Origin: Verrucomicrobiota bacterium
Lineage (GTDB): Bacteria > Verrucomicrobiota > Verrucomicrobiia > Limisphaerales > UBA9464
Assembly: GCA_017309115.1 (NCBI GenBank)
Contig: JAFLEF010000035.1
Coordinates: 7,843-71,842 of the forward strand
DNA: 64,000 nucleotides
Direction of reading: 5' to 3'
Position 1 is the first letter of the stretch. Every line of letters begins with the position of its first letter. The notes below the pieces were generated by a model, which saw only the letters and a list, made by a program, of their open reading frames with translations, searched no databases and was not told the origin of the DNA. Shown one piece after another: positions 4,181-30,340 of this stretch. Made by a program: the position numbers and the translations under genes.

Positions 4181-4217
4181 ACGGTCGGGCCCTGCCCGTT
4201 CCACGTTCTGATTTCAA

Positions 4218-4252
4218 CCCCGGGAGCGATCCGCTCCCGGGGTTTTTGTTTT
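4218..4252 (+). terminator. Rho-independent terminator downstream of eno
   Basis: Perfect 11-bp stem CCCCGGGAGCG (4218-4228) / CGCTCCCGGGG (4232-4242), 3-nt loop, then TTTTTGTTTT (4243-4252). Confidence 0.85.
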
Positions 4253-4290
4253 CCGGAGGGAACGCCACCGCCCCTCCTCTGCTTTACCGC

Positions 4291-4339
4291 TTTACCCACC
4301 CCGACAGATCTTCAGATTCGCCGAAGTCATGAACAGATC
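4291..4339 (+). promoter_or_regulatory. Copy A of a 49-nt conserved promoter/5' leader block that includes the start codon (ATG AAC AGA TC)
   Basis: TTTACCCACCCCGACAGATCTTCAGATTCGCCGAAGTCATGAACAGATC matches 15953-16001 at 48 of 49 positions, in the same orientation. It ends 11 nt into the 4329 CDS (MNRS). Weaker similarity extends ~35 nt upstream and ~20 nt downstream. Confidence 0.6.
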
Positions 4340-7300
4340 GGAAACCCTGATTCGAACCCTCCTGCCTTTGATTCTTCGTTGGAGTCGCTTCGGGTGTCGC
4401 GGAGGCCGGGCGGTGTGGCTGTTAACGGGCTTCATTGCTTTGGCCCAACCCGACAACGACTCGTTTGCGGAGCGATTCGTCCTCCAGGGTAACTTCCTCA
4501 CGTTCTCCGGATTTACTTTGGGCGCGGAACTGGATCCGGCGGAAGCGACCCGGTTGCAAGTTCCGGCGGGAAGTGGAAAGGGAGCGGTCTGGTGGCAGTG
4601 GACGGCACCGGCTTCAGGCAGGTTGAAACTCTCAAACCCCGCTTACAACGGAGGCTGGGGAAAACGCTTCTTCTTCCGACTGATCGCCTTCGAAGGAAAG
4701 ACCTGGGATTCCCTCAGCTTGGCTGCGGAATTCAGCTCCAAAGAATCCATGGAGTTCTGGGTGAACGAAGGGGTCACCTATTGCTTCGCTATCATTGGAC
4801 CTTCGCGGCCCGAGTCCGTCTGGGATTTCACCCTCAACCTGGCGTTGCCGATGGCTCCGGCCAACGATTCCCCGGAGTCACCCCAGGAGTTGGTCGGGGA
4901 TTATCTCACCGCGGCGGGGACAACCCAATTCGCGAATCCCGATTCTGAGCTCCAGCCAAGCGTGTGGTGGACGTGGACTGCTCCGCGATCTGGTCAGGCG
5001 TTCCTCAAACTTCTCCCCTCGGATTCGACCGTCCGCTTCAAGGTTTGGAAACGCAGCACGTATCCGGCCGGGCCGGCCGTAGCATCCCAAATTCGCCTGA
5101 AGGATGACGCCACTCCAACGCTCTGGCCCACCCGGACCACTTGGTCAGCCGAGGCAGGTGAAATCTACCTCCTCTCGGCGATTCAGGACACCACCACAAC
5201 CCCGGGGACGTTCTCCTTTGAACTGTTGCTGTCGGAGTTCGGTTTGCGAGCCGATCAACCGTCCGTGCACGCCACCGATACGGTCGAGCTTCAACTGTTG
5301 GCGCCTACAAATTGGATCGGAGAGCGACACTTCACTCTGCACGATAGTGCGGCGCCCAGTCTCACCAATACGATCTCGGGTTTCCCGTGGGCGTGGTCCA
5401 ATGCCGTTCTTGGCACCCACCGCTTGGAAGCGGTTACCGTGGACTCTCTGGGCCGCCGTTGGCCCGCCACGAATTCAGTAGCGATTGGTGTCTTCGATCT
5501 ACAGTCCACCCCCACCAATGACTGGTTCGCCCAACGGACCGTCTTGACCACGGGCACGAATATTCTTTTATCCCTCGACTCCGCGAGCGCGGAACCCGGC
5601 GAACCTGGAAACGCCGATCACTCTGTTTGGTTCGAGTGGAAGGTGCCTACCGACGGCCGCCTGCAAATCTCCCGTTTCCCCTCCTCTCCATCGCCTCAGA
5701 TCGACGCTTATGTGGGTTCATCCTTGGGCGACCTGCGACCCCTCGTTGGAAATTCGCTCACCAATGGCGGAATTCTCGACCTCGTCTTCCCCGCCACCGC
5801 GAATCAACCGGTCCTGATCCGATTTTCCAGTCCCACCAATCATTATCGCTCGATCTCCCTGAGCATTGTGGGCGGACCAATTCCACCGAATGATGCCTGG
5901 ACCAATCGGACCATTCTTCCCTCTGGGAGTTTCCAAGTCGAAGGAAGTACTGGCTTGGCCAGCGTTGAGGCCCTGGATTCCGGGTTGGACTCACGAACGG
6001 TGTGGTTCGAGTGGACTCCTCCCGCAGAGGGAATTCTGGAACTCCCTAGCGCTCCCAGTGAAGGCAACAGAACGCTGTTATTCGCCGGTCCGGGATTTCC
6101 CAAGTCCGTTCTTCGCCCGCTGGAATTTGGCAGTCGGCTGCAATTCTTGGTTCATCCCACCACCAACTATTTTCTTGGTGTCCTGGGTCAGGGGTATTCC
6201 AGGTTCCCAGCCACGGGCGGTAGCTTTGCGTTCGCCGGAGTCTTCCACCCCCGACATTCCCACGATCGACTCACCAATGCCCATGTGCTTGCGGGAATCG
6301 ATATCGAACTGGCGGGAAGTTGGGCCGGCGCACTCTACGGCTACGCAACCTCCTTGCTGAACCCGTTTGATCGATACATCTGGTACGACTGGACGGCACC
6401 GGAATCTGGACAGGTCTGCTTGGCCTTCGAAACGCCCCATCCCACTTCAGTTGGCGTATTTCCACCCGGCGGTGATGGCAGCTACATCGCTACTCAACAA
6501 CAAGCGGGCCAGTGGGCTTTCACCGCCGTCGCGGGCAGCCGCTACCTGATCGCGATCGGTAGCTCATACCAAACACCCGACCTTTTCCGCGGCCGTCTCC
6601 AACGGCTCACGTCGCCGGAAAACGATCTATTCGAATTCAGCAAATCCATTCAAGGAACTCAGGCCCGACTCCGCGGAACATTTTTCTCGGGAGGCCGAGA
6701 GCCCGGCGAACCGGCTTTCCCACCGATCGCGAATTCCAACGCCTCCGTCTGGTGGACCTGGACCGCTCCCCATTCGGGTTGGGTTTCCCTGCGGCATTCC
6801 GCTCAGGTGGGTCTCCGGGTGTTTACCGGAACAGACGTGAGGCAGTTAGCCCCGGTTCCCACCGAGGGACCAGAGCCCTTCGAATTCGAGCAGGAGACAC
6901 GATTTGAAGTTGAAACCGGAATTTCATACCGAATCGCGGCGTACGGCTCGAATCTCCAACCTTTCCTGTTCGACGTAGATCTCAATCTTTCCACCTTTCG
7001 CGTAGCCCGGCCCGATGACCAAGCCGTTTTCAACTGGGGTGACCCCATCGAAGTCCAAGCCGCTGTCCCCGATCCGGTGGTGGATGGAGTGTTAAGCGGA
7101 CCGGTACACGTGGTGCCCGGGAACTTTCCCAGCCTCGATTTATTCAACGAATTCGGCACGATTCCCGGTCCGCCTGGCAGTGGCCTCATCCACCAATTCT
7201 CCCCGCCCTCCGTGACCTTCCGACTCTGGGCCACCAACACGGAAGGTTCGCTGCGCTACACGCCTCCAGTCCGCATCGAGGTTCGGGCCGCCCACGATGC

Positions 7301-9530
7301 CTTCGCCCGGGCGAAAGTGCTGACCGGGACTAATTGGACGGAAACTCTTTCTCTGACCGGCGCCACCTTCGAACCCGGCGAACCCTTCACCCAGGAGCCG
7401 AATCAAGGATCTGTTTGGGTCCAATGGCGGGCTCCCCATACCGGACACGCCCTGCTTTCACTTTTCGGAAACTCGGCCTCCGTCAAAGCGTACCAAGGAA
7501 CCACCTGGGGTACTCTACAGGAAGTCCCGGCTGCTCTTTTTCCAGTCAACCGGGGAACCGAGTACCGCTTTCAAATCATCAGCACCGCGCCAAATGCCTC
7601 GGCCGAACTGCGCCTCGAGTCGTATCCCTATCGCGTGGAAGTCGTGGGCCCGGGCATTCCCCGACGAAGTGAGCTGGCCTTTGAGTTGGTCACGGACATT
7701 CCGGCTAGCGAGATCGCCTCGGTCGAATACGTAACCTCCTACTTCGTGTCGCCGCCGGCCTACTTTCCCCCTTACCGGGTATCCGCCGCCAACACCGAGT
7801 TCCAAGCCGGCCCCCAATGGGTCCGTCCCCTCATTGAGTTCAAAAACGGGACGGTCTGGGAGATTCCCAGCAGCTTTACCCACAGCTGGCGTCCCGACAA
7901 TGACGACCTCGCCGACGCCTTCCGGATGGATTCGTTCTGGTGGGGTTGGGTGGGCACTGGAGGCGCGACCCTGGAACCTGGAGAGCCCGCTACCGCGAAC
8001 GGCCAAGGGTCCATTTGGTGGACCTTCGAAGCGCCGGAGGATGGCTATCTGAGCGTCTCCACCGGACACGCCAATCTCGCATTCGAAATCTTCTCCAACC
8101 CCGACAAGACCGGTTGGGCGAGGGCTATCCGGCTGGGACCACCCGCGCGGTCCCAAATCGTGGAGGTCCGCAAGCAGCAACGAATCCAGATTCGTTTGCT
8201 CGCGCCTCCCGGTGTTTTTGATGTCGAGCTCCGCTTCTCCCACGTCAGCACGAACACCATCGCGGAATCCGCCCCGGAACTGCCACCCAACGGCTCCGTG
8301 GCGGCGGGGTTTGGTCCCAGCCAGGGGCAATACCTGCACTGGTGGTTTCAACCGGAGCGTTCCGGACATCTGATCTTCGAGCCGGACTTTGGAGTCAGAG
8401 GTAACTTCCGGTGGCACGCTCTGAAAAATGGTGTCGATACTGGCGTTCCACTCTTCCAGGAATCACAGCAGGCGGTTCAGGCGGGCCAGCGGTATCTTTT
8501 GAAGATGTGGCTGGCGCCTCCCGATATTGGAACGGTGAACGGCCGTTTCCGCATCGTGGAACCGCGCCAAAATTACTCCTTCACCCGGCGTCTCACTCTG
8601 CCTCCGGAAGGTGTGAACGACTACTTCGTGACCAGTCCGTTTGCGAGCAATCTCCAGGAACCGGGTCTCGATCCTGGGGCTGATCTCACCCGCCTTCGGT
8701 CCTTTTGGTTCTCCTGGACCAGCCCGGTGCGCCAGTGGGTTGACCTCAGTGCCAGTGCCGTTGCCACGCTTGGGGTGTTCGAAGGGTCCGCTCTAGACAA
8801 CCTCCGGGTTCTCCATCTCTCCAACGAGTCCTACCTCAGCTTTCTGGCTCAAGCTGGCCAGACCTACCAGATTCTGGTGCGCGTCTACAGTCTGCCCGGC
8901 TACAATCCCACAGGTCAGTTGATCCCGGTCTATCTCGGTGCCCTCGCACCTCCCGCCAACGACGATTTTTCCCAGCGAACTCCGATTCCTGGTTCCTCCG
9001 CCGTCCTGACTGTCGCCAATCAGAATGCCACCCGTGAAGCCTTCGAACCGTGGCATCAAGGCCGTCTCTCCTTGGCCACATCCTGGTGGACGTGGACCGC
9101 TCCCTCCTCGGGCCAGCTGAAACTTCAGTTTCGCGGCCGATCCCCCCAGAACTGGATCACGCTCTACCAAGGAAACTCTCTCGATACGCTCACCGAACTC
9201 CCCTCCGTTCCCCTCGTCCCCTCCCGCCCCGGCGGTTGGTGGTCGGTTCAAGCGGATGAGGTTTACCAACTCGCCATCGCCAGCGACTACCATATGCCTA
9301 GTTCGGAACTCCTCTTTGAGTTCCTTCCCGACCCCGGCCCGCTGCAAGTCCACGTCGTGAATGATGAGCTCGAACTGACTTGGCCGCCGGATTTGGCGGC
9401 CGGCGTACTGGAGTCCTCGACCGGCTTCGCCACTGGTGATTGGGAAGAGATTCCGACCGGCGGTGCTACGACCCTCCGTCTTCCGATCTCCACTGCGGCC
9501 ACCCGCTTCTTCCGCCTGCGGCTGCCGTAG
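4329..9530 (+). CDS. Giant secreted repeat protein (1733 aa) with about 11 ND-F...EPGEP...WWxWTAPxSG modules and a C-terminal ...RFFRLRLP domain
   Basis: Long uninterrupted ORF. Signal peptide MNRSETLIRTLLPLILRWSRFGCRGGRAVWLLTGFIALAQP. Recurrent ~150-aa modules, e.g. NDWFAQRTVL..SAEPGEPGNADHSVWFEWKVPTDGRLQIS; ENDLFEFSKSI..GREPGEPAFPP..SVWWTWTAPHSGWVSLR; DNDDLADAF..TLEPGEPATANGQGSIWWTFEAPEDGYLSVS. No enzymatic motif recognised. Confidence 0.85.
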   Translation: MNRSETLIRTLLPLILRWSRFGCRGGRAVWLLTGFIALAQPDNDSFAERFVLQGNFLTFSGFTLGAELDPAEATRLQVPAGSGKGAVWWQWTAPASGRLKLSNPAYNGGWGKRFFFRLIAFEGKTWDSLSLAAEFSSKESMEFWVNEGVTYCFAIIGPSRPESVWDFTLNLALPMAPANDSPESPQELVGDYLTAAGTTQFANPDSELQPSVWWTWTAPRSGQAFLKLLPSDSTVRFKVWKRSTYPAGPAVASQIRLKDDATPTLWPTRTTWSAEAGEIYLLSAIQDTTTTPGTFSFELLLSEFGLRADQPSVHATDTVELQLLAPTNWIGERHFTLHDSAAPSLTNTISGFPWAWSNAVLGTHRLEAVTVDSLGRRWPATNSVAIGVFDLQSTPTNDWFAQRTVLTTGTNILLSLDSASAEPGEPGNADHSVWFEWKVPTDGRLQISRFPSSPSPQIDAYVGSSLGDLRPLVGNSLTNGGILDLVFPATANQPVLIRFSSPTNHYRSISLSIVGGPIPPNDAWTNRTILPSGSFQVEGSTGLASVEALDSGLDSRTVWFEWTPPAEGILELPSAPSEGNRTLLFAGPGFPKSVLRPLEFGSRLQFLVHPTTNYFLGVLGQGYSRFPATGGSFAFAGVFHPRHSHDRLTNAHVLAGIDIELAGSWAGALYGYATSLLNPFDRYIWYDWTAPESGQVCLAFETPHPTSVGVFPPGGDGSYIATQQQAGQWAFTAVAGSRYLIAIGSSYQTPDLFRGRLQRLTSPENDLFEFSKSIQGTQARLRGTFFSGGREPGEPAFPPIANSNASVWWTWTAPHSGWVSLRHSAQVGLRVFTGTDVRQLAPVPTEGPEPFEFEQETRFEVETGISYRIAAYGSNLQPFLFDVDLNLSTFRVARPDDQAVFNWGDPIEVQAAVPDPVVDGVLSGPVHVVPGNFPSLDLFNEFGTIPGPPGSGLIHQFSPPSVTFRLWATNTEGSLRYTPPVRIEVRAAHDAFARAKVLTGTNWTETLSLTGATFEPGEPFTQEPNQGSVWVQWRAPHTGHALLSLFGNSASVKAYQGTTWGTLQEVPAALFPVNRGTEYRFQIISTAPNASAELRLESYPYRVEVVGPGIPRRSELAFELVTDIPASEIASVEYVTSYFVSPPAYFPPYRVSAANTEFQAGPQWVRPLIEFKNGTVWEIPSSFTHSWRPDNDDLADAFRMDSFWWGWVGTGGATLEPGEPATANGQGSIWWTFEAPEDGYLSVSTGHANLAFEIFSNPDKTGWARAIRLGPPARSQIVEVRKQQRIQIRLLAPPGVFDVELRFSHVSTNTIAESAPELPPNGSVAAGFGPSQGQYLHWWFQPERSGHLIFEPDFGVRGNFRWHALKNGVDTGVPLFQESQQAVQAGQRYLLKMWLAPPDIGTVNGRFRIVEPRQNYSFTRRLTLPPEGVNDYFVTSPFASNLQEPGLDPGADLTRLRSFWFSWTSPVRQWVDLSASAVATLGVFEGSALDNLRVLHLSNESYLSFLAQAGQTYQILVRVYSLPGYNPTGQLIPVYLGALAPPANDDFSQRTPIPGSSAVLTVANQNATREAFEPWHQGRLSLATSWWTWTAPSSGQLKLQFRGRSPQNWITLYQGNSLDTLTELPSVPLVPSRPGGWWSVQADEVYQLAIASDYHMPSSELLFEFLPDPGPLQVHVVNDELELTWPPDLAAGVLESSTGFATGDWEEIPTGGATTLRLPISTAATRFFRLRLP

Positions 9531-9550
9531 GGACGCGGATGCACCCGGAG

Positions 9551-12500
9551 CTACCGGAGGGCTTCCAGTCGGTAGAAACGGACGGGAGGAACCTCGGGAG
9601 AAATATCCCGCCATTCCGCCCGACCGGTGCCGCCCAAACGGACCGACTCCACCGGGAACCAAGTCTCCAAGTCCTCGGAGGCCTGAACCACCACGACTTC
9701 TCCCGGCGCCCCGGCGAGCGTGAGTTGGGGCACGTTGTCCCAGGTTGCCTGCAGGATGGCCGGTGGCGGCACCACTGGCGCTTGCAGCGATAACCGGACC
9801 ACTCCCGTCTCTCCACCCGCTCCGCCCACCTGAATCTGATACACCTCGCCGGCCTGCGCCGTAAACTGAACAGCGCTGGAGAGCAGTATCCCCAGTTGTG
9901 CATCAGACGGTTCGTCATCACTGCTGGCCACAGTACTCAATTGAATCAGGGCCGTGCCGCGAAAGACGGACAGTTGAGTGTCAAACTGACTTCCGGTCGT
10001 CCTGACCGTGACCTCTCCAGAGGCGGGCGCCCGCCAAGTCCACCACAGCGTGGCACCGGTGGATGACCCAATGGGTCGAGGTTCGTCCACCTCCAGGGAT
10101 GCCCCGGTGCTGATGACGTAATCGACCAAACTGGAGCCGACCAGGGCACGGCGGTTTACAAAGTCATCATTTTTCGGTGGCTGAACCGGCTCCAGGACGA
10201 ACTCAAATCGACTCCGCGGGCTGTCCGGAACCTCCATGGCCAAGTAATAGGTGGCTCCAGCTTCCGCAAGAAACGTGAGCTCGGGAGCCGGACCGGTGGC
10301 TTCGCCGTTGCTCTTCAGCCGAGTCAATCCCAAGAGAGATTCACCCGCATAAACCGCCATGGCCGGAATCGTCCAATCGTTTATCGGGTCCTCAATCCGC
10401 CACCGCATGGTGGTCGTATGGGGTGATGTCCACCTCCACCAGCGCGACGTCTGCGCGACGGAACCGAAATGACCGGGCTCCCCGGGTTCGGCCGTTGCTC
10501 CCATCCCCGCCACCCAGGAGGTGGGCGCCGAACCGGTCAGTAGCTGCGCCTGGGCGAAGTTGTCGTTCGCCGGGGTCGGCAGCTGATACAACTGCACGGC
10601 AAACTTGAAGGCATCCAGCGAGAGGGTGTCCACCGCCAGCTGGAGTTTTTCTCCCGCTCGCGCTTCGAACCAACCGAATCCTCCGTCGGGAGAAACGTGT
10701 CGCGGAACGACTGTGAGTTTGGACAGATCGGTCCCGCGATAGATCCCCAGCGACAAGTCGAGACCCCGGCTCCACAGCGCGGACACCCACCAGCGACCAG
10801 ACTTCGGGACCGTCCATTCCCACCAAAGTGAACCTCGGCCCAACACACCTCCGTGAATGGGTTCACCCACTTCCCGTGTCGCCGCGGAGTTGTCCCCGGC
10901 CAATACCGGTGCCGAGCCCGCGATCGCGGTGCGGGCGACAAACGAATCATTGGCACCAAGGTCCGACAACAGGGTCAGCGTTAAGCCAAACTCCAACTCC
11001 TTGGGGAACCACCCGAAGTCTGACCTCTGGGCGAAAATTCGGACCCACCACGTTTCGCCCGCAGTAACAGGGGCACTCCAGCGACCCAAGGCCCCATCGG
11101 ACTGCACCGGCAGGAACAGTCCGTCCGGGGTCAGCGCAATGACCTCCAAACCGGTAAAAACCTCGCCGTTTTCTTCGAGGGGAGTTCGCCCAATGACCAC
11201 CCGACCCGACTCCGGCGCGGTCCACTGCACCCAGCGGCTGTCTCCGCGGCGGACGATTCCTTCATACGAAGGTGAAACCCCCACCAACTCCCGGGCGGTA
11301 TCGGCACTTGTGTTCTCGGCTCCAGGATCAATCGCGAACTGCAAAAAGTACTGCAAGTACGCATCCGGTCGGGAGCCGTCGATCGCCGGATAAACGGCAA
11401 TCTGATACGTCGTTCCAGCTTCCGCATAAAACGTCGCCACGCCGGAATCGCCAGTCGCCCTCACCAACACCAAATCACGCAACTGATCGCCCCGGAAAAC
11501 CGCCGCCGTCAGCGCCGGGACCGTCTGCCAAACGCCCAGTGGGAACTCGGGTTGATCACCAGGTGTCAGATCATAGTAGCCCGATCGCGGGGCTCTCCAG
11601 GACCACCACAAGGAAGGTGAGGCTCCGCCCACCGTCGGTTCGCCTGCTTCCCGAGAGGAGTTCTCTGCTCGAACCTGAACGCGGGGACGCTCTCCTGTGA
11701 GGCGCAGACGATCCACAAACTGATCGTTCGTCGGGACCGGCAACGCTTCAAACTCAAGCGCCGCCGCCGGAAACCATTCGTCGGCTCCATAGACACCGAT
11801 CAGATACGTTTGCCCCGCCTGCGCCAGGAAGTCGGGTCGACCATTGGGTGCGGAACTCGCCACCAAGAACGGGGTCGGACCTTCCAACCACACCGCCCAG
11901 TTGAAAGGGGCTCGGATCTGGTTTCGAATCATTGCGCGGAGGTCCCGGGGTGCGGTCCACCGCCACCACCGATCCACCCCTGGGAACGGCGCAGCCAAAT
12001 CCGCCGTTCGCGTCGCCCCCAGCAAGGAACCGGAAAGCACCGCCGATTCGCCCGAAACCAGAGCAGCGGTGGCCCAAGTGTCGCCGGCCACCGCCAGGGC
12101 CAAGTCCAGGACGATTCCCCCCTCTTCCGCCGGCGAATCCGGACTACCGTCTCCCGAGATCCAGTAGGCCGCACCCGCGACGGCCGAAAACTCCAATTCC
12201 CGGGTGAACGGATCCCCCGGCGTCCGCTCCGCCACTTCCGGTAACGAAACGAAAGCGCCCTCGGCCGTCAACGTCCACACCCCCATCCGGGGCGTCGAGG
12301 GGCTAGCCTCCAAGCCCGCAGGCAAGGAGGCGAGCGGAACCAAAGGCGAGCCACTGACCGTGCGCATCCGGAGTCGGGCGCGCCCCGCGTCGGGAGCGAT
12401 CCAGAGCCACCAAATGGACCGGGTGGCCGGTTGCGACGCAGCGTCCACTTCCCCGGGAGCAGCCGTCGCCGCTCGATGACTGGCAGCCACAGAGACCGCG

Positions 12501-15500
12501 AACCCTTCCAGCAGGGTCGCCCGATCCCAGTCATCATTCACCGGCGGTAGACCATCAGGAATCGTAGTCACCGAAAGCGTGAACAAGCTGTCGCGGCCCC
12601 CGATGGAGTCGATTACCAGTGGATACTCGACGCCGGGTTCAACGTGAAAGCGGATGACGTTCGACGTGTTCGTTCCTTGGCGGTACATGACCGTTCGGAG
12701 TTCACCGGAAGGCGTGCGTCGGAACTGCTCCAGATAAACCGGCGTGGAGCCGACCACGCTCACCTCGACCACCGCCGCTTCCGTGGGACGAATTGTCCAC
12801 CACCGGGTATGGCCCGAGAGACCGATCCCGTTGAGCCGTTCGCCAGGTTCCGCAGTGGCGGCATGGGTCTGACTTTCCACCGAAGCGGCGCTGCCCAATT
12901 CCGTGCGACCGGCAAACGAGTCATTCTGCCAGGGCTCATCGAGCCAGAGACGCAGCGGACCCACGCCCAATCCGGCGACCAAGATCTGAAGTTTCTCCCC
13001 GGCGGTCACCAGCAGGGCCCCGGGCCGATAGTGGGAGTTACCGACGGCCAGCAGAGACAGACCGCCGTCGTTCCCCATCCGGTAGACGGCCACATCATTT
13101 CCCTGAATCTCATAGTTCAATTTTCCCGAAGCCGGCGCGGTCCATTCCCACCAAATGCTAGACACCGGCCGCCAGGCAAACGGCAACACCGGATCACTGG
13201 GATCGCGGGTCGCCCGTGTCAGATCGCAGGCGAGGATCCGATCTCTTTCATTAATTCGAAAGCGGGCGGCAAAGAGATCATTTTCCGGAGGGGCAAAGGG
13301 CTTCAGCGTGATTTGACAGGGTGTCGGAGACAAAACCGCTCCGCTAGTTCCCCCGCTGAGGGCGAGGTGATACTCGTGGCCCGCCTGGACTTCCCAATCG
13401 AACCCCCCGGCGGCAAACACGGGCGACATCCGATACTGGAGTCGCTCCGGCGAATCGCCCTCGAAGACGGCCGCCTGGAGCAAGAGATTGGTCGAGTTTC
13501 CCAGAAGTCGGAAGGAAGCCACTCCGGAACTCGGCGCGATCCAGGAATACCACAGGGATCCAGGCAAGGACTCGGGCTCACCCGGCTCCCGCGATCCCAA
13601 CAGCTGGGGAATCGTCCACTCGGGAGTTGCGCCCGGGAGCATCGTTCGGTTGGCGAAGCGATCGTTCGCCGGCAGGTAGCCCAGCAAGAAGGGCGAAGGT
13701 TCATACGGGTACGTGAGAAACTCCGGAATGTCCGACCACACCAGCGCCAGCTGATACCGGGTGCCCGCCACCGCTTCGAACATGCTCCACCCGTCCGTTG
13801 TTTCGGTCTTGGCCACCGGGATCAAGGAAGCCAGTGAATCGCCTCGGAAGATCTCCAGGCGCGCGCCGCCGAACACGGTGACCATCCCTGACGCGGGGGC
13901 CGTCCATTCCCACCAAGTCCCATAGCCGCGAACCGAAGCGGGACCGGATGGATCTGTCGGCCCCGGCATCAGCGCCGGCCAGACACCGGACGCGCCGTTT
14001 AGCCGCCGGCGATCCGCGAAGCGATACGCGGGGTCCGCCGGAAGTAGTTTCAGATCGAACTGAAAACTTCCCAACGCCTGCCACCCAGAATGCACAACTC
14101 CGTAGTGCGGCTCCCCGGCCACAACCGGAAGAATTCCCGTCTGAACAACGCCTCCGACGTAGCTCAGGCTGCCCAGCTGAGTCCCCCGAAACAGACTCAA
14201 ATTGAAGAGCCCTTCATTCGTCCCTCGGGGAATGGTCACAAAACCCGAGCTGGGGGGAGTCCAGGTAAACCAGACCGAAGAGGCGCCCTCCAACCAGGGG
14301 GCCGCCGCAACATTGGTCTCACCGGTTGCTCCCACATTGTGGCCCCGCAGGGAAACCGAGTCACCCGTCAACCGGGTGGCGGAAGCGAACAGGTCATTGG
14401 TTTGACGTGGATAAAAACGCACGACCAATTCCCCGTCCACAAACTGCCGACGATCAAAGAGAGCCGAGCCCACGGCGACTTGCAGTGTCTCGTCCGCCTC
14501 TACCGGAAGAATCAATTCAAGCGATTCTGCATACTCAGAGATTCCGGAACGAACCTGAGCCTTGGTAATCAGGGCATCGATACGGGTTCCCTGAAAGACT
14601 CGAAGCTCCCGAGTCGCCACGTTTCTCCAATCCACCGGCGTGTGCACGAGGCGAAGAAATCCCGGCCCCGGGGCCGTCCAGGTCCACCAAACCGAGCCTT
14701 GAATGCCCGCTCCCCAATTGGGTTCGCCGACTTCCAAGGATGACCCTCCTAAGTCGCTCGGAACCTGTTCCGAGACCAACAATCGACGTCGGAAAGCAAA
14801 CTGGTCATGGGCCGCTCCCGACGAGTACTCAAGATCTCGGCGAACCATGATTCCCTGCGAATCCGTTAGGACAACAGCCAACCGAACCCACGAATCCGCC
14901 CACTTTCGGACGTCCAGTCTCCACGGAAACTGAGTTGAGGTCGCCTCGGGAACTTGTCCCGGCTCAATCATGCCCGTCAGAGGATCCACGAGAAATACAT
15001 CTGCCCGACGCCCGTTCGCGTCCTCAGTATCCACCTCGATCTGCACCGTTCCGTCGCTCCCCCGTACGACCTGAAATCCGGGAGACACCATCGGCACGGC
15101 AGCTCCCCGAAAAGCGGCGACCACTGAGGCGCGTTCATCAATCGTTCGCACATTGTTCGCCTGCCCCGGTACTCCCAATGGCTCCCGGTACACTTGAACC
15201 GAGGGATTCGAGAACGCCGGCAGGGTGTCACCTCCGGCCATCAGGGTGGACATTCCATTAGTCCGCCGATAGGCATGGGAATCGGGATATAGTCCCGGCT
15301 GCACGACTCGATTACCGGGCTCGGCGTCCACCGCCAACGGTCCGCAGCCCAACATGCGTCCGATGATCCGCGCAAACTCCCGAGGGCTCAGTTCCGTGGT
15401 GACGGCAAAGGCATTCGAAGAACCCACGGCCAACGGCGCAAAGGTGCCGATCGGACCCCACGTCGTTCGGTGCAACAGGACGACCAAATCCGCGGCCGAT

Positions 15501-15961
15501 CGGTCCCGGATCTCATGGGCCTCATCCAGATATCCGTCGTTGGCATTCACCAATCGTTGGTGCGTGTACTCCAGCGATTCGCCGAACATGAACAGCGATT
15601 TGGGCCAATAGGCCAGTCGTCCAGTGTGAACCAGCTGCACCCGAGTCCGCGACCCACTGTTCAGGAGGATCTGGTTGGCACCATCGACCAACAACTGGGC
15701 CTGCCCTGGCCCGCCTTCAGGGTCCGTCGGCCAGATCGGAAAAGTGGATAAGACGGCAACGTCCACCACCTGAATCGGCTCGTCTCCGACCGTCCGAGTC
15801 CAAGTCAAAGATATCGAGGACAGCCACAGGATGAGATACAGTCGGAGGGCTGGAATCCAACGGTCTGAGTTCGCGGATTTCACAAAGCCGGACCCTGACA
15901 ACGTCACAGCCGCAATGCAAACAGGAGGAAGCCCGAATTCCCGCTTTGCCAATTTACCCAC
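9551..15961 (-). CDS. Giant secreted protein (2136 aa): N-terminal reprolysin-like (M12B-like) domain with a substituted zinc site, about 13 EPGEP/WWxWTAP modules, C-terminal ...RFYRLEALR domain
   Basis: Long ORF convergent with 4329-9530 (20-nt gap between stops). Modules include SREPGEPESLPGSLWYSWIAPSSGVASF, ATAEPGEPGHFGSVAQTSRWWRWTSP and SLEVDEPRPIGSSTGATLWWTWRAPASGEVTV. The start is uncertain. ATG 15961 lies inside the duplicated leader block. GTG 15883 would give MKSANSDRWIPALRLYLILWLSSISLTWT, a better signal peptide. Confidence 0.85.
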   Translation of the reverse strand: MGKLAKREFGLPPVCIAAVTLSGSGFVKSANSDRWIPALRLYLILWLSSISLTWTRTVGDEPIQVVDVAVLSTFPIWPTDPEGGPGQAQLLVDGANQILLNSGSRTRVQLVHTGRLAYWPKSLFMFGESLEYTHQRLVNANDGYLDEAHEIRDRSAADLVVLLHRTTWGPIGTFAPLAVGSSNAFAVTTELSPREFARIIGRMLGCGPLAVDAEPGNRVVQPGLYPDSHAYRRTNGMSTLMAGGDTLPAFSNPSVQVYREPLGVPGQANNVRTIDERASVVAAFRGAAVPMVSPGFQVVRGSDGTVQIEVDTEDANGRRADVFLVDPLTGMIEPGQVPEATSTQFPWRLDVRKWADSWVRLAVVLTDSQGIMVRRDLEYSSGAAHDQFAFRRRLLVSEQVPSDLGGSSLEVGEPNWGAGIQGSVWWTWTAPGPGFLRLVHTPVDWRNVATRELRVFQGTRIDALITKAQVRSGISEYAESLELILPVEADETLQVAVGSALFDRRQFVDGELVVRFYPRQTNDLFASATRLTGDSVSLRGHNVGATGETNVAAAPWLEGASSVWFTWTPPSSGFVTIPRGTNEGLFNLSLFRGTQLGSLSYVGGVVQTGILPVVAGEPHYGVVHSGWQALGSFQFDLKLLPADPAYRFADRRRLNGASGVWPALMPGPTDPSGPASVRGYGTWWEWTAPASGMVTVFGGARLEIFRGDSLASLIPVAKTETTDGWSMFEAVAGTRYQLALVWSDIPEFLTYPYEPSPFLLGYLPANDRFANRTMLPGATPEWTIPQLLGSREPGEPESLPGSLWYSWIAPSSGVASFRLLGNSTNLLLQAAVFEGDSPERLQYRMSPVFAAGGFDWEVQAGHEYHLALSGGTSGAVLSPTPCQITLKPFAPPENDLFAARFRINERDRILACDLTRATRDPSDPVLPFAWRPVSSIWWEWTAPASGKLNYEIQGNDVAVYRMGNDGGLSLLAVGNSHYRPGALLVTAGEKLQILVAGLGVGPLRLWLDEPWQNDSFAGRTELGSAASVESQTHAATAEPGERLNGIGLSGHTRWWTIRPTEAAVVEVSVVGSTPVYLEQFRRTPSGELRTVMYRQGTNTSNVIRFHVEPGVEYPLVIDSIGGRDSLFTLSVTTIPDGLPPVNDDWDRATLLEGFAVSVAASHRAATAAPGEVDAASQPATRSIWWLWIAPDAGRARLRMRTVSGSPLVPLASLPAGLEASPSTPRMGVWTLTAEGAFVSLPEVAERTPGDPFTRELEFSAVAGAAYWISGDGSPDSPAEEGGIVLDLALAVAGDTWATAALVSGESAVLSGSLLGATRTADLAAPFPGVDRWWRWTAPRDLRAMIRNQIRAPFNWAVWLEGPTPFLVASSAPNGRPDFLAQAGQTYLIGVYGADEWFPAAALEFEALPVPTNDQFVDRLRLTGERPRVQVRAENSSREAGEPTVGGASPSLWWSWRAPRSGYYDLTPGDQPEFPLGVWQTVPALTAAVFRGDQLRDLVLVRATGDSGVATFYAEAGTTYQIAVYPAIDGSRPDAYLQYFLQFAIDPGAENTSADTARELVGVSPSYEGIVRRGDSRWVQWTAPESGRVVIGRTPLEENGEVFTGLEVIALTPDGLFLPVQSDGALGRWSAPVTAGETWWVRIFAQRSDFGWFPKELEFGLTLTLLSDLGANDSFVARTAIAGSAPVLAGDNSAATREVGEPIHGGVLGRGSLWWEWTVPKSGRWWVSALWSRGLDLSLGIYRGTDLSKLTVVPRHVSPDGGFGWFEARAGEKLQLAVDTLSLDAFKFAVQLYQLPTPANDNFAQAQLLTGSAPTSWVAGMGATAEPGEPGHFGSVAQTSRWWRWTSPHTTTMRWRIEDPINDWTIPAMAVYAGESLLGLTRLKSNGEATGPAPELTFLAEAGATYYLAMEVPDSPRSRFEFVLEPVQPPKNDDFVNRRALVGSSLVDYVISTGASLEVDEPRPIGSSTGATLWWTWRAPASGEVTVRTTGSQFDTQLSVFRGTALIQLSTVASSDDEPSDAQLGILLSSAVQFTAQAGEVYQIQVGGAGGETGVVRLSLQAPVVPPPAILQATWDNVPQLTLAGAPGEVVVVQASEDLETWFPVESVRLGGTGRAEWRDISPEVPPVRFYRLEALR

Positions 15962-16001
15962 CCCGACAGATCTTCAAATTCGCCGAAGTCATGAACAGAT
16001 C
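15953..16001 (+). promoter_or_regulatory. Copy B of the 49-nt conserved promoter/5' leader/start-codon block
   Basis: TTTACCCACCCCGACAGATCTTCAAATTCGCCGAAGTCATGAACAGATC has a single mismatch to 4291-4339. It contains the ATG (15991) of the cytochrome P460-like gene, which also begins MNRS. Confidence 0.6.
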
Positions 16002-16638
16002 AGCCAACCCTGGCCGCACCTCAAATCCTCGAAGGCGGGCTCTCCCGATCAGTCGCATTAACCCGGTTCTTTTCCTGCTGACCGTCGCGATGGTCTTCGC
16101 CGGTTGCGAGAAGTCCGCGGCTCCGGAAACAGTCGGCGAGCCTGATTCGCCCAGGATTTCCGAACTCGCCGTTACGTACACCAACTTGGTTCTAATGACG
16201 CAGGAAGAGGTTTTTGTTAATCCGGAGCTGGCTAGGTTGTGCCGGGGAATTTATCAGGAGGAGGTCGAAGCAGCTCGGACCCAATTCGGTCCGCACGCCA
16301 ATACCAGCATTCGGGTTTTCATGAACCCACCCGCCGCGGATGCCCTGAAGAGCAACCTGATCCCCTATCCCGTGGGATCCGTGATCGTGAAGCAGAAGAT
16401 GTCGCTGGGGTATCAACGGAGTGACGGAACTGACGTCGGTGCTGGAACGGCGGGAGTCGGCGGGATGGTGAAACGCCGCCCCGGATACGATCCCACGCAC
16501 GGCGACTGGGAATACTTCTATGAGGAAGGGAAAGGACCCCTGGAAAGCGGACGCCTTTCCACCTGCGTGACCTGCCATTCCTCAGCCCGGGACCGCGACC
16601 ACGTGTTCGGAACCTGGAGACACCGATCTTCACCCTGA
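15991..16638 (+). CDS. Cytochrome P460-like heme-binding lipoprotein
   Basis: The first ATG of the track ORF 15946-16638 (which starts at TTG) is at 15991. MNRSANPGRTSNPRRRALPISRINPVLFLLTVAMVFAGCEKS gives a signal peptide plus lipobox (FAGC). The C-terminal region ..YPVGSVIVKQK..HGDWEYFYEEG..STCVTCHSSARDRDHVF has the single CxxCH and surrounding pattern of the P460 family. Confidence 0.65.
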   Translation: MNRSANPGRTSNPRRRALPISRINPVLFLLTVAMVFAGCEKSAAPETVGEPDSPRISELAVTYTNLVLMTQEEVFVNPELARLCRGIYQEEVEAARTQFGPHANTSIRVFMNPPAADALKSNLIPYPVGSVIVKQKMSLGYQRSDGTDVGAGTAGVGGMVKRRPGYDPTHGDWEYFYEEGKGPLESGRLSTCVTCHSSARDRDHVFGTWRHRSSP

Positions 16639-26607: not shown

Positions 26608-29600
26608 TCAGGGAACCAACGGCGCGTGCCACAGGCCCAGCTGACCCCGCGGAATCCACAGCCCGGACTCCGCTGACACCGCCACGTGAGTCCAGTCGAA
26701 GCTTAATCCGCAGGGCCGTTCCGCCGTCGCCGCCTTCCGCAGGATTTCCGGATCCGCATCCACATAGAGCTGGAACTCGCTGCCGGCACTGACCACCAGT
26801 CCCGCCTCGGACTCGTTCAAGCCTTCCGCCGGCGCCGACAACGGAATCGTCCCGTACCGTTCGAACGTTCCCGCGACACTCACCGCCCAGACTTCGAGCG
26901 CCGAAGCCGCGTTGGTGGACGCCCGACCCAGGAACACCTGCCCGTCCGACGTCACCAGGAACGGCGCCGGCTGAAGTTCCGGCAGCGGCAAGGCCCCGAC
27001 CCAACTGGCCTGAAGCCCATCGTACGCGAGCGCATGAACGAATGATCCCGTCGTGGACTCATCCACCGGACCGCCCTGGGCGTAGACCAGCGAACCCGCA
27101 TGGGAAACCCCCTCCAATCGACCCGGCAAGGCGACCGGAGTCCGCACCACGGGTTCCGTCAGATCCGCGAAGTCCAGCACGTCGAGCGCGTAGTCATGTT
27201 CATAGATACTGAAATCCGGTCCCGGCGCGGGAAGTCCAGCCTTCACGAGGCGGGAGGTTCGATGGCTCAGGAACACCTTGCCGTCCGCGACAAACGCCCG
27301 ACTAAAGCTGTTCCATTGGTTCGTCCCCCCCAACTGCACCTGAGACGCCCAGACCGGCAACTCCGGTGCGCTGACGTCGAAGGCCAGAAAGTTTCGCGTC
27401 TCCTGCCACCACCACGGCCCCCACCAGATCAAACCGGGAACCGCAAGGTCGGTCACGCGCGGCAAGGCGACTCCCGGACCAAATGTCACCAGCCCTCCGC
27501 CCGAGACTCGCAACGAAGTCCAATCCATCCATCCACTTGTGCCCGGCGCTTCCGTCCAAACCACCTGCGAATCCCCCACCCACAGCGGCACCATCGGCGC
27601 GGCAATGAAGTTGGTCGGCGAGTCCCAGCTCTGTCGTCCACGCACCTGGATCTGATCTCCAGCAAACTCCACCACACTGAGTTGCACGGCGCCCGGCACC
27701 CGACGAGGCACCCAGGTGGTGTACGTGTGCACGTTGGTCACGAGTACCGGCGGCTGGGCCACCCACTCCCACCACTCCACCAGGTTCGTTTGCCAACTGT
27801 CCGGTTCCGGCACGAACTCCGGACGAATCCACGTCAGGCGATAGACACTGGGCGTCGGATCCAGGGGCGATGGTGGGCGCACCTTTTCCGTGGTGGTGGA
27901 AACGAGATTGGTGGCTTGCGGACGCGGTACTTCGCGCGACTGCACGACCACATTGGTGAGAGAACGCTGTCCGTCTTCTTCATGGATGAAAATGTTGGTG
28001 ATGACTCGGGTGACGAGCGGAGGTGGACTCAGCACCACTTCCACACGGGTGCGGCGCTCGCGAATCGGCGGACGCCCCTCCTCAGAAACCAGCACGTTGG
28101 TGATCGTGACCAAGTCGGATGTCCAAATGCTGGCCCGACCCTGCAGAACCACCAAATGATCCTCCCGCAGATCTGCTCCCAAGAGCGGCAGTGACTCCAA
28201 GGCCAGGGTCACCCGTGCCCGTTCGGGTTCCGCCGCGGTTGCCAGAGCGACCTCGAGCGCTTGACCCGCCGGCTGCCGCAATTGCACCAACTGCCCCCCG
28301 CGCACAAACACCCGGTCCACCTGCGGTGACAAGGGCAGTTCACCCGTCACTCGGGGTTGATCCCGGTCCGTGGCATCCACCGTCAGCAATTCCTGTGCAG
28401 ACACCGACACGATGCGCTCATCGATCCAAGTGGCGCGGCGCGCTTGCAAGGCATGATCAACCACGCCACGGGCCTCGAGTCGGCCGGCTTTCAAATCCAC
28501 GTCAATCAGCTGCACCCCCTGAAACCAACTGCCCGCAGTCCGCCCGGGCAGTTCGCCCTGCCACGGGACCAAGGCCAGACCCAATTCCGGAAATACCTGG
28601 AAGGCCTTTTCATCGGCGTTTCCTTCGCTCCAGGACCAACCCGCGCCCAGCAACACCTTGCTCAGGAGCGTGGGCCGATCGGCATCCGCCACATCAAACA
28701 ACTGAACCGTGGTACGGCTGCCATCCACTCCCAGGGCCAGTAAGCGCGTGTTGTCGGCCAGCGGTTGCAGATACGTCGAGTAACCCGGGATCTGTAGTTC
28801 GCCCCGGATCACCGGCTGCGTCGGTTGGCTCAGATCCACAATCCACAGCGGATCCACCACGCGGAACGTCACCACATACGCCCGGTTTCCGGAGAAGCGT
28901 GTTCCAAACAGGGTTTCATTGGTCACCAACGTGAGTTGGCCCACCGGTGCCGACTGGGCGAAGTCGCTCAGCGAATAGGTCTCCAAGACGGTCTTCGGCG
29001 GCGTCCATTCCCAAGTCAGCAGATTGCCCGTCGGATCCCGTGGATCCGTCACCATCCGGCCCTCCCCATCCACTTGGGAAACGGCCGCCAGCCAGTTCCC
29101 TCCGTCCCCGAAAGTTCCCAGTTTGAATTTGTCGAAGACCCGTCCGGCGGTCCGGAAGTAACCCAACTGCTTCACCGTTCCCGCCGGGTCGCTGAGGTCG
29201 AACACCAGGACTCCGTGATTGCCCAACAGCGCCCATTCCGCCAGTCGTTCGAATGGAAGCGGAGTTCGACTGCCTGACGCGGCCACGAACAGGAAGCGAT
29301 CCGTGGCCGACAGCGCCAGCGGATGCACGGGAAGATCCACCACCGGTTGCGGGACCGGTGCCGCGGGATTGGCGAGGTTGAAGGTGCTGATCACCGTACG
29401 GCTTTCGTAAGCGACGGGCAGGAGGGTCCCGTCCAGTGCGATCTCGGCGGTTCCCGGAACCCAGTCGTTGCTGGCGACGTACAACACGTCACCCACCAAC
29501 CGTGTCTCGCGAATCTGCCCCCGCACCGGCAAGCGCAAGGCCAACCGCGGCGTTCCGGCGGTGACCTCGACCAACAGCACTTCGCTGCCCGATCCCGTGC

Positions 29601-30330
29601 AACCCTGTTGCGCCAACAACGCCAGCCACGTGGAACCCGACGCAGCCGAAGCGGGCAGCCGGTACAATTGCTCGCCCCAAACCGCGAGAGGCAACTGGCC
29701 GAGCATCCGAGGTTCGTCCAATAGGGTCAGATCAATCACTTGAAGTCCCCGTTGTTGATTGAAGAAGTACGCCGTCCGGCCCTCGACCTTCCAAATATCC
29801 GACTCCACTACCGCCCGGGTTTCACCTCCGGTCACCTGGGAAACGGTTCCATTCGGAGTCGCATCGAAATTCATATTGGCCACGATGCCGCCCACGACTC
29901 CGACTCCAGACCCTGCCTTTTGGAGAGACGGGCGAAACGCCTTGCGACCCCGGAAGAAGTTCGCGGGCAGACCCACTTCCTGATCCACCTCATCGCGAAC
30001 CCGCAGCATTTCCATCCCGTCTCCCAAAGGCAGGGTGAAAGTCAGTTCGGTCGTCACCGACCGGTCGCTCCATTGGACGTCCCGCGGCGTCCACGTGCCG
30101 CGCAACAGGCGGCTCCGGCTTTCCAGAGTCAGCCGGCGTTGCCCCGGCGGCACGGCCACGATGACGTGAAGTTCCGTTCCCACGGCGCGCAACGACACAA
30201 TCTGCGCTGCGGACGGGTCGTCGGCCGTCACTCGAACGAGCCCGACCCCGGCCAACCAGGCCAGCAACAGGAAACCAAAAAGACGGCGCGCGAACGGAAC
30301 TCGATCCACGACGGGAGTGATGGGATTCAT
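26608..30330 (-). CDS. Large secreted beta-propeller domain protein (COG4880 / Beta_propel family)
   Basis: The track ORF runs to 30564, but ATG 30330 gives MNPITPVVDRVPFARRLFGFLLLAWLAGVGLVRVTADD (signal anchor) and sits 8 nt after the anti-sigma stop. The family signature is AYVVTFRVVDPLWIVDLSQPTQPVIRGELQIPGYSTYLQPL. Confidence 0.82.
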   Translation of the reverse strand: MNPITPVVDRVPFARRLFGFLLLAWLAGVGLVRVTADDPSAAQIVSLRAVGTELHVIVAVPPGQRRLTLESRSRLLRGTWTPRDVQWSDRSVTTELTFTLPLGDGMEMLRVRDEVDQEVGLPANFFRGRKAFRPSLQKAGSGVGVVGGIVANMNFDATPNGTVSQVTGGETRAVVESDIWKVEGRTAYFFNQQRGLQVIDLTLLDEPRMLGQLPLAVWGEQLYRLPASAASGSTWLALLAQQGCTGSGSEVLLVEVTAGTPRLALRLPVRGQIRETRLVGDVLYVASNDWVPGTAEIALDGTLLPVAYESRTVISTFNLANPAAPVPQPVVDLPVHPLALSATDRFLFVAASGSRTPLPFERLAEWALLGNHGVLVFDLSDPAGTVKQLGYFRTAGRVFDKFKLGTFGDGGNWLAAVSQVDGEGRMVTDPRDPTGNLLTWEWTPPKTVLETYSLSDFAQSAPVGQLTLVTNETLFGTRFSGNRAYVVTFRVVDPLWIVDLSQPTQPVIRGELQIPGYSTYLQPLADNTRLLALGVDGSRTTVQLFDVADADRPTLLSKVLLGAGWSWSEGNADEKAFQVFPELGLALVPWQGELPGRTAGSWFQGVQLIDVDLKAGRLEARGVVDHALQARRATWIDERIVSVSAQELLTVDATDRDQPRVTGELPLSPQVDRVFVRGGQLVQLRQPAGQALEVALATAAEPERARVTLALESLPLLGADLREDHLVVLQGRASIWTSDLVTITNVLVSEEGRPPIRERRTRVEVVLSPPPLVTRVITNIFIHEEDGQRSLTNVVVQSREVPRPQATNLVSTTTEKVRPPSPLDPTPSVYRLTWIRPEFVPEPDSWQTNLVEWWEWVAQPPVLVTNVHTYTTWVPRRVPGAVQLSVVEFAGDQIQVRGRQSWDSPTNFIAAPMVPLWVGDSQVVWTEAPGTSGWMDWTSLRVSGGGLVTFGPGVALPRVTDLAVPGLIWWGPWWWQETRNFLAFDVSAPELPVWASQVQLGGTNQWNSFSRAFVADGKVFLSHRTSRLVKAGLPAPGPDFSIYEHDYALDVLDFADLTEPVVRTPVALPGRLEGVSHAGSLVYAQGGPVDESTTGSFVHALAYDGLQASWVGALPLPELQPAPFLVTSDGQVFLGRASTNAASALEVWAVSVAGTFERYGTIPLSAPAEGLNESEAGLVVSAGSEFQLYVDADPEILRKAATAERPCGLSFDWTHVAVSAESGLWIPRGQLGLWHAPLVP

Positions 30331-30340
30331 CTGGGGGGAC

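Follow-up and report, generated by a model that had tools for sequence, protein, structure and literature searches.

Two convergent giant genes of a Verrucomicrobiota bacterium are predicted to encode arrays of PPC-like modules from a very large protein family

Introduction

Two giant genes face each other on contig JAFLEF010000035.1 of a Verrucomicrobiota bacterium (assembly GCA_017309115.1; Limisphaerales, UBA9464), and they raise the question of whether their products form a surface system of their own or belong to something more widespread. The genes, here called A and B, lie within a stretch of 64,000 nucleotides (nt; contig positions 7,843 to 71,842), which we refer to as the window and whose own coordinates we use throughout. 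A model that saw the letters of the DNA and a list of open reading frames (ORFs) had described the two products as a matched pair of paralogs built from about 24 copies of an unassignable module, and had proposed that they constitute an undescribed cell-surface system, such as an adhesin or ligand-capture array or an S-layer-like scaffold (the original prediction).

4329-9530, + strand: gene A, 1733 amino acids (aa); signal-peptide-like N-terminus, 11 PPC-like modules, three inserts of ~90 aa, and an RFYR-type C-terminal tail
9551-15961, - strand: gene B, 2136 aa (longest ORF); putative signal peptide, dead metzincin head, immunoglobulin-like (Ig-like) spacer, 13 modules, and a tail

The reading we favor, and hold to be fairly probable, is that A and B, independently of one another, are secreted proteins for multivalent binding and belong to one very large, mostly verrucomicrobial family.

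Results

Both proteins carry arrays of one divergent module

Regular-expression scans of A and B recovered three motifs that recur in register, (P)xND.F..A..L, EPGEP, and [SV]WWxWTAPxSG, with the WWxWTAPxSG strand falling 34-45 residues after the ND. We excised and aligned the modules, 11 of them from A and 13 of them from B, which yielded a profile of 127 positions. The modules span 111-151 aa, about 127 on average, so the ~140-160 aa given originally was an overestimate. They are 18-36% identical to the reference module B13; positions W46 and P52 are nearly invariant, an ND consensus opens most modules, and an acidic loop of the E.[GD]EP type is present in about half of them.

The profile detected 11 non-overlapping copies in A and 13 in B (E 4e-16 to 1e-36 each). 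Because such a profile is circular for the window's own proteins, independent controls were needed. Smith-Waterman comparison of modules with one another gave a mean score of 72, against 30 +/- 6 for shuffled partners, and the profile found 13 copies in the L002 protein, a 38%-identical B orthologue (E 1e-10 to 3e-31), and 14 in the family member P0011. The repeat anatomy first read from the letters (the ND, EPGEP, and WWxWTAPxSG motifs) was thus recovered by scans, profile, and controls, and the estimate of ~24 units (~11 plus ~13) proved exact at 11 + 13 = 24.

The module is predicted to share the fold of PPC and collagen-binding domains

Profile scores and a structural model together indicate that the module is a divergent subfamily of the β-sandwich superfamily that includes PPC domains and collagen-binding domains (CBDs). 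At the level of sequence, whole-length B matches Pfam PPC (PF04151) at 34.9 bits (cut-off 25.9), and module B13 passes that cut-off when searched alone (26.3 bits); A has no PF04151 match. Conversely, A reaches 28.0 bits against PF23759 (GBD_T9SS_assoc; cut-off 27), with no single stretch passing alone and with the match spanning the EPGEP...WF.W motif, and B has no match to this family. NCBIfam gave no match for either protein. The module profile also matches 2luw, the PPC domain of vEP, which is a Vibrio metalloprotease (E 0.006).

At the level of structure, an AlphaFold model of B13, computed with the 24 modules as alignment, has nine strands, a predicted local distance difference test (pLDDT) score of 89.2, and a predicted template modeling (TM) score of 0.85. 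Its best Foldseek matches are the CBDs of the clostridial collagenases ColH and ColG, the PPC domain of a B. anthracis collagenase, and the C-terminal domains of subtilases. The top PDB entries (3jqw, 1nqj, 1nqd, 4hpk, and 5sv5) match with probability 1.0, TM scores of 0.55-0.67, and root-mean-square deviations of 3.9-5 Å, and CBM6 and CBM35 domains stand lower in the list.

PF23759, a galactose-binding-domain-like family that is annotated on most homologues, covers the same module: its match in P0011 (residues 1886-1979) falls within a module at 1873-1998. It detects the arrays poorly, scoring 28-37 bits per whole protein (37 in P0011), whereas our profile scores 68-96 bits per copy in P0011. 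The claim that the module cannot be assigned is therefore not supported: gathering scores of PPC and PF23759 are passed and the predicted fold is that of PPC domains and CBDs. Yet neither Pfam family matches cleanly and neither brings a tested function for this subfamily, so that the original prediction's own ground for refutation, a clean match to a characterized domain of known function, applies only by half. A literature search turned up no bacterial study of PF23759 (GBD_T9SS_assoc), of EPGEP, or of PPC together with Verrucomicrobia, and no functional data for PF23759.

The comparison with known proteins shows both likeness and departure. The β-sandwich is common to the modules, PPC domains, and the clostridial CBDs (ColG s3a/s3b and ColH s3), as is, across the module family, tandem occurrence on the C-terminal side of secreted protease domains. 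Family members with S8 or reprolysin heads show the PPC position behind the catalytic domain of a secreted peptidase; B does so formally, behind a dead head, and the headless A does not. The ND opening of the module (ND, a small helix, and a strand) presumably resembles the Ca2+-binding N-terminal linker of the ColG CBD. Departures include the inserted EPGEP loop, an identity of only 8-16%, the replacement of the acidic D.D.Y.F strand of classical PPC domains by WWxWTAPxSG, arrays of 11-27 copies instead of 1-3, and a catalytic head that is absent from A and dead in B. For a verrucomicrobium from the environment, collagen itself would be an improbable ligand. Also among the fold matches are the C-terminal β-jelly-roll domains of the subtilases KP-43, Tk-SP, and SubHal (5fax, 3afg, and 1wmd). 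In subtilases of this type the C-terminal domain is single and stabilizes the enzyme. Many members of the module family carry a Peptidase_S8 head before their arrays; A and B have no S8 domain.

The module family is very large and mostly verrucomicrobial

A search of 1.84 billion cluster representatives with the module profile returned 30,735 proteins at E ≤ 1e-3, including 5,332 at E ≤ 1e-30, with a maximum of 27 copies in one protein. This abundance contradicts the notion of an undescribed, rare system: the family is very large, though weakly recognized by Pfam and experimentally untouched, and the A/B locus is one of its ordinary members. The homologues are 1000-5000 aa long and carry PF23759, PF04151, and commonly Big_7 domains, many of them headed by a Peptidase_S8 or reprolysin-like domain. 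Among 262 sampled family proteins the median number of modules is 11. Both architectures of the locus recur there, since 150/262 are headless like A (first module at most 100 residues from the N-terminus) and 82/262 are headed like B (first module starting at residues 300-600).

A scan of GTDB species representatives, in conjunction with the alignment of B orthologues, left 80 array loci, which do not include the source genome or its close relatives. As the scan was keyed on module motifs (WWEWTAP and others), it samples the family at large and not B orthologues in particular. Array loci come mostly from Verrucomicrobiota, with some from Planctomycetota, Actinomycetota, Desulfobacteraceae, Gammaproteobacteria, and Lentisphaerae. 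Several of the array-bearing contigs from metagenome-assembled genomes (MAGs; L020, L043, L045, L017, and L039) are titled Klebsiella pneumoniae, Bifidobacterium sp., or Akkermansia muciniphila. Such titles on arrays of verrucomicrobial type are probably binning or labeling errors in the public record.

Modules of B are conserved position by position

The arrays of A and B, together with their intervening segments, are laid out as follows.

4446-5243, + strand: A modules 1-2, aa 40-175 and 176-305
5244-5507, + strand: A insert 1, aa 306-393; probably Ig-like (Big_7-like), no Pfam match
5508-6992, + strand: A modules 3-6, aa 394-888
6993-7283, + strand: A insert 2, aa 889-985; β-rich spacer, no Pfam match and no significant similarity to the other inserts
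7284-7622, + strand: A module 7, aa 986-1098
7623-7889, + strand: A insert 3, aa 1099-1187; no Pfam match
7890-9323, + strand: A modules 8-11, aa 1188-1665; module 9 is the most degenerate (E 4e-16)
9782-14818, - strand: B modules 1-13, aa 382-2060
14819-15091, - strand: B post-head spacer, aa ~291-381; Ig-like (Big_7-like)

Judged by eye, inserts 1 and 2 of A look Ig-like. Insert 1 scores 50 against the Big_7 region of the homologue P0127, a borderline value given a shuffled maximum of 48, and the spacer of B aligns with a region of P0075 that has a weak Big_7 match (score 86, shuffled maximum 48).

P0075 is the sole more distant orthologue of B; it is 37-39% identical and has the same head and 13 modules. 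Twelve of the 13 B modules find their best match at the same ordinal position in P0075, with mean scores of 189 on the diagonal and 83 off it. The B array is thus old, each position having been conserved individually, and the maintenance of module order at 38% identity argues that the modules are individually specialized rather than generic spacers. Given this positional orthology together with the low identity of the modules to B13, we reject recent amplification within the arrays and their concerted evolution. We likewise reject recent duplication of a whole gene as the link between A and B, as their modules are not collinear. The paralogy stated in the original prediction holds at the level of the domain only.

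This positional conservation bears on what the arrays are for. It strikes us as unlikely that they are mainly structural, forming a long, rigid, Ca2+-stiffened stalk or fiber that projects from the cell, a matrix, or a spacer for the tail or head, with modules that have no binding specificity of their own. The residues conserved across modules (ND, EPGEP, and WWxWTAP) do look like core or junction residues and not like a variable binding face, arrays extend to 27 copies, and Ig-like spacers are interspersed. Interchangeable spacers would not, however, be expected to show 13 individually conserved positions, and the closest solved domains are binding domains. We therefore retain multivalent binding as the preferred function.

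A near relative found on an ENA scaffold (L001; 82-92% nucleotide identity, collinear) allowed us to estimate selection. The A proteins are 76% identical with a ratio of nonsynonymous to synonymous substitution rates (dN/dS) of 0.28, and the B proteins are 93% identical with a dN/dS of 0.20; the corresponding values are 98% and 0.045 for enolase and 91% and 0.069 for a TPR gene. A and B are real genes under purifying selection, with constraint relaxed as is usual for surface proteins. Overall dS is approximately three-fold higher in A than in B. It is unevenly distributed within A: the N-terminal half (window 5100-7000, residues ~260-900) shows dS of ~0.7-1.8 and 53-75% amino-acid identity, and the C-terminal half shows dS of 0.15-0.6, with B and enolase at ~0.19. 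Recombination with a divergent allele, or misalignment of paralogous modules, could account for this pattern.

The pairing of A and B is a lineage-specific adjacency

We reproduced the ORFs, their convergence, and the gap between stop codons, which measures exactly 20 nt (9531-9550). No terminator-like hairpin was predicted within the gap or within 250 nt on either side, and with so short a gap and no hairpin the A and B transcripts would have to end inside each other's coding sequence. In L001 the order enolase-A-B is kept, with the same 20-nt gap, and an apparent lack of A modules 1-2 there is a scaffold gap of Ns. This synteny says little, since the two sequences differ by just ~13% at the DNA level and are collinear throughout.

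Beyond L001 the pair dissolves. The P0075 gene is flanked by PhoPQ-related and Mur ligase genes, and neither the ~4 kb upstream of it nor the 10 kb downstream holds an A-like or other array gene. None of the 80 further array loci has a convergent array partner within the flanks fetched; the few double array genes among them abut on the same strand and are probably split genes. Besides its counterpart in L001, A has no orthologue above 29% identity. From the P0075 locus, the 80 loci, the want of a distant A orthologue, and the non-collinear modules, we conclude that the A-B pairing is a lineage-specific adjacency and not a conserved system. The matched pair of the original prediction thus survives only in L001.

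For these reasons we regard it as very unlikely that A and B are a dedicated two-component surface system, co-expressed and building a single adhesin, ligand-capture, or S-layer-like structure. L001, the sole near relative available, does keep the convergence and the gap, the two proteins share a type of C-terminal tail, and the 64-kb window holds no further module or tail protein. Against this stand the weakness of the L001 evidence and the absence of a partner within the flanks of P0075 and of the 80 other array loci, as well as the unequal divergence of A (76%) and B (93%) from their L001 orthologues, with a dS that differs ~three-fold, and the lack of collinearity between their modules. 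The S-layer-like scaffold in particular finds nothing in its support, as Pfam and NCBIfam revealed no SLH or other anchoring domain on A or B. Two independent binding proteins that happen to be neighbors remain our preferred description.

The head of B retains a metzincin-like fold and has lost the zinc site

15017-15805, - strand: B head, aa ~53-315; predicted adamalysin/reprolysin-like metzincin fold without catalytic site

The original prediction had noted a degenerate protease-like head on B. Alignment and structural modeling bear this out and identify the head as a pseudo-metzincin. In the alignment, ARIIGRMLGCGPL of B occupies the place of HELAHNFGCQHD in homologues, with RIIGRMLGCGPL of B aligned with HELAHNFGCQHD of P0011 and HEIGHNMGCLHN of P0146. 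All three zinc-binding His residues and the catalytic Glu are lost (H, E, H, H to R, I, R, P), and the replacement is kept in both the L001 orthologue and P0075. The Met of the Met-turn is retained, STLMA of B being aligned with TVMSY or TVMAY of homologues that bear HExxH. As originally stated, no active catalytic domain is present in A or B.

The relationship to reprolysins is transitive only, because Pfam gives no direct match for the B head even at E ≤ 10. It runs through the head of P0127 (BLASTP, E 2e-13) and jackhmmer searches to the head of P0011, which scores 67 bits against Reprolysin_5 and 57 bits against Reprolysin_4. Sequence searches of the PDB with the head, as a single sequence and as a profile, returned nothing. 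An AlphaFold model of the head (pLDDT 75.7) had 119 PDB matches in Foldseek at E ≤ 1e-3, of which the best was CpaA (6o38, E 4.6e-12, TMq 0.60), followed by ADAM33, ADAM8, ADAMTS, and snake-venom metalloproteinases.

Loss of the zinc site is the rule among array-attached heads. Of 47 sampled heads, five keep HExxHxxGxxH (P0011, P0146, P0162, P0168, and P0253), and ~40 have lost the site; most of the latter share PV[VAT]LSFNFGCQLER, including P0127, P0004, P0034, P0039, and P0122. Judging from these alignments, the heads without zinc site form a large clade of conserved pseudo-metzincins. Most reprolysin-like heads on module arrays would thus have lost the zinc site and yet stayed conserved.

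The closest structural match offers an instructive comparison. CpaA is classified in MEROPS family M72. It is a metzincin glycoprotease secreted by Acinetobacter, with four tandem β repeats that resemble glycan-binding domains (PMC7542363). As in B, a metzincin domain is joined to tandem β-sheet repeats (PMC7542363). The order is reversed, as the catalytic domain of CpaA is C-terminal (PMC7542363) and the head of B N-terminal, and the repeats are 13 and PPC-like in B rather than four and Ig-like. Unlike CpaA and the adamalysin/reprolysin (M12B) proteases, B has no HExxHxxGxxH zinc site.

That B, with A possibly contributing through partners, is still an enzyme with a non-canonical active site in its head and with arrays that target it to substrate as in collagenases, CpaA, and subtilases, is the reading to which we give least credence: the modeled adamalysin fold, the Met-turn Met, residues invariant between B and P0075 (including H149, D153, H229, and C206), and the existence of relatives with an intact site before the same kind of array are outweighed by replacement of every zinc ligand and the general-base Glu in B, by the same loss in its orthologues and in ~40/47 sampled heads, and by a head that Pfam does not recognize on one protein and that is missing from the other. 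With A headless and the metzincin site of B lost, only a binding function can remain.

Putative export signals and a shared C-terminal tail

4329-4445, + strand: A N-terminus, aa 1-39; basic N-region, then hydrophobic AVWLLTGFIALA, directly before the first ND; conserved in L001
9324-9527, + strand: A tail, aa 1666-1733; ends RFFRLRLP (tail profile E 3e-11)
9554-9781, - strand: B tail, aa 2061-2136; ends RFYRLEALR (tail profile E 3e-21)

Both proteins have hydrophobic N-termini, as seen by eye and in hydropathy plots, and residues 1-39 of A are a probable Sec signal peptide; P0075 begins with a classical signal peptide. For B, the true start is probably not that of the longest ORF but GTG 15883, 26 codons downstream, where the gene call of the near relative begins at the corresponding position. 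The protein would then have ~2110 aa and the N-terminus MKSANSDRWIPALRLYLILWLSS.

At the other end, both proteins carry a tail of ~70 aa with the pattern S-x-[DN]-L-x-x-W ... RFYR. A jackhmmer search found this tail in 109/263 family proteins, often doubled, and in 105 of the 109 it lies at most 15 residues from the C-terminus. It also ends five module-free proteins in the fetched loci (among them L014, L032, L064, and L069). Four of these are of extracellular type, with Calx-beta and DUF11 domains, a PATR domain, CBM6 or CBM35 with DUF4832, and a P-domain with LTD, respectively, and the fifth has no Pfam match. These associations make the RFYR tail a candidate C-terminal sorting or anchoring domain of Verrucomicrobiota. 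Pfam gave no match of either tail to the C-terminal domain of type IX secretion (T9SS), even at E ≤ 10; across the tails, the B head, and the three A inserts, Pfam returned only noise (DUF6380 and DUF3999, E ~0.08). A PDB search with the tail profile gave chance matches only, and a homologue search with it returned only fragments of 54-135 aa, which are uninformative about passenger proteins.

A 59-nt direct repeat brackets the pair

4281-4339, + strand: repeat copy 1; leader of A and its first 11 coding bases, ATGAACAGATC (encoding MNRS)
15943-16001, + strand: repeat copy 2; leader and first 11 coding bases of a cytochrome P460-family gene, in the divergent B/P460 intergenic region

The two copies bracket the A-B pair exactly. 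Their starts lie 11,662 nt apart, and they are identical at 55/59 positions overall and at 48/49 in the inner 49 nt. Since the repeat comprises the leader and first coding bases of each gene, A and the P460 gene share a translation start region and probably promoter-proximal sequence. L001 keeps copy 1; at the position of copy 2 its sequence is ~55% similar, and the P460 gene is replaced by different genes. In metagenome contigs, exact-pattern matching with the 59-nt leader found nothing, and Rfam returned only a chance JUMPstart match to the leader (E 0.44). We considered a mobile island bounded by the repeats and rejected it: no integrase or transposase lies inside, a target-site duplication would be shorter than 59 nt, and the guanine-plus-cytosine (GC) content is that of the flanks.

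Surroundings of the locus

Enolase is encoded upstream of A and has a clean intrinsic terminator (4216-4244). Beyond the start of B follow the P460-family lipoprotein gene (15991-16638, + strand) and genes for a TPR protein, MoeA, and three glycosyltransferases. No secretion-system gene adjoins A or B, and Rfam found no family at gathering score in the whole window. The NCBI protein identical to A is a hypothetical protein of a Verrucomicrobia MAG, with a precomputed PF23759 annotation.

Two further large ORFs caught our attention. One (39799-44916, - strand, 1705 aa) has no Pfam match at E ≤ 1e-5 and sits in the stretch of lowest GC in the window (0.54-0.59, against ~0.63 elsewhere). The other (26608-30564, - strand, 1318 aa) matches Beta_propel (PF09826) at 149 bits; its product is large, probably secreted, and unrelated to the module family.

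Discussion

We propose that the ancestors of A and B were secreted proteases in which PPC-type domains, placed after a subtilisin- or reprolysin-like catalytic domain, tethered the enzyme to a substrate that is insoluble or polymeric. In A and B the catalytic part would have disappeared or died, leaving a string of β-sandwiches (ND.F..A..L, EPGEP loop, and WWxWTAPxSG) interspersed with Ig-like spacers and closed by the RFYR domain. Both proteins would be exported by the Sec pathway and then either released or retained at the cell surface, possibly via the C-terminal tail. They could then serve as multivalent arrays for capture or adhesion, with a separate surface presented by each module. By analogy with clostridial CBDs, Ca2+ is probably bound by the ND residues and the acidic loop, which would stiffen the junctions between modules. 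The extracellular binding or adhesin role that was first suggested for the pair is plausible for each protein, given the signal-peptide-like N-termini, the predicted fold of a binding domain, and a tail shared with proteins of extracellular type.

Several points weigh against this reading. Individually, just 2/24 modules match Pfam PPC at E ≤ 0.1, and the assignment holds at the level of the superfamily because fold similarity is moderate (TM ~0.55-0.6 at 8-16% identity). Visual inspection and hydropathy were the only means of calling the signal peptides, so that secretion of A and B is an expectation from their sequences. The dead head may do more than bind passively, as PV[VAT]LSFNFGCQLER is highly conserved in many relatives. 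Finally, we found no ligand, localization, or expression data for any family member in the literature.

A bolder extension would unite these elements. The arrays, the dead metzincin heads with their mostly shared PV[VAT]LSFNFGCQLER, and RFYR as a sorting or anchoring signal specific to Verrucomicrobiota and relatives, comparable in role to the T9SS C-terminal domain or PEP-CTERM, would together define an unrecognized class of verrucomicrobial pseudo-protease surface adhesins, with A and B cooperating in this lineage and the 59-nt leader tying A and the P460 gene into a regulon. Taken as a whole, we think this decidedly unlikely, and we return to the reading of two independent binding proteins.

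The findings on A and B themselves would not surprise a specialist in secreted bacterial repeat proteins. They do give 11.6 kb of "hypothetical" sequence a clean annotation as two putatively secreted arrays similar to PPC domains and CBDs, one of them behind a dead adamalysin-like domain. They also indicate that the current Pfam models PF04151 and PF23759 are poor at detecting a subfamily whose members number in the tens of thousands, and that an unannotated tail of ~70 aa marks many large verrucomicrobial proteins of extracellular type. Module, head, and tail may now serve as handles for finding what the abundant giant proteins of Verrucomicrobiota bind.

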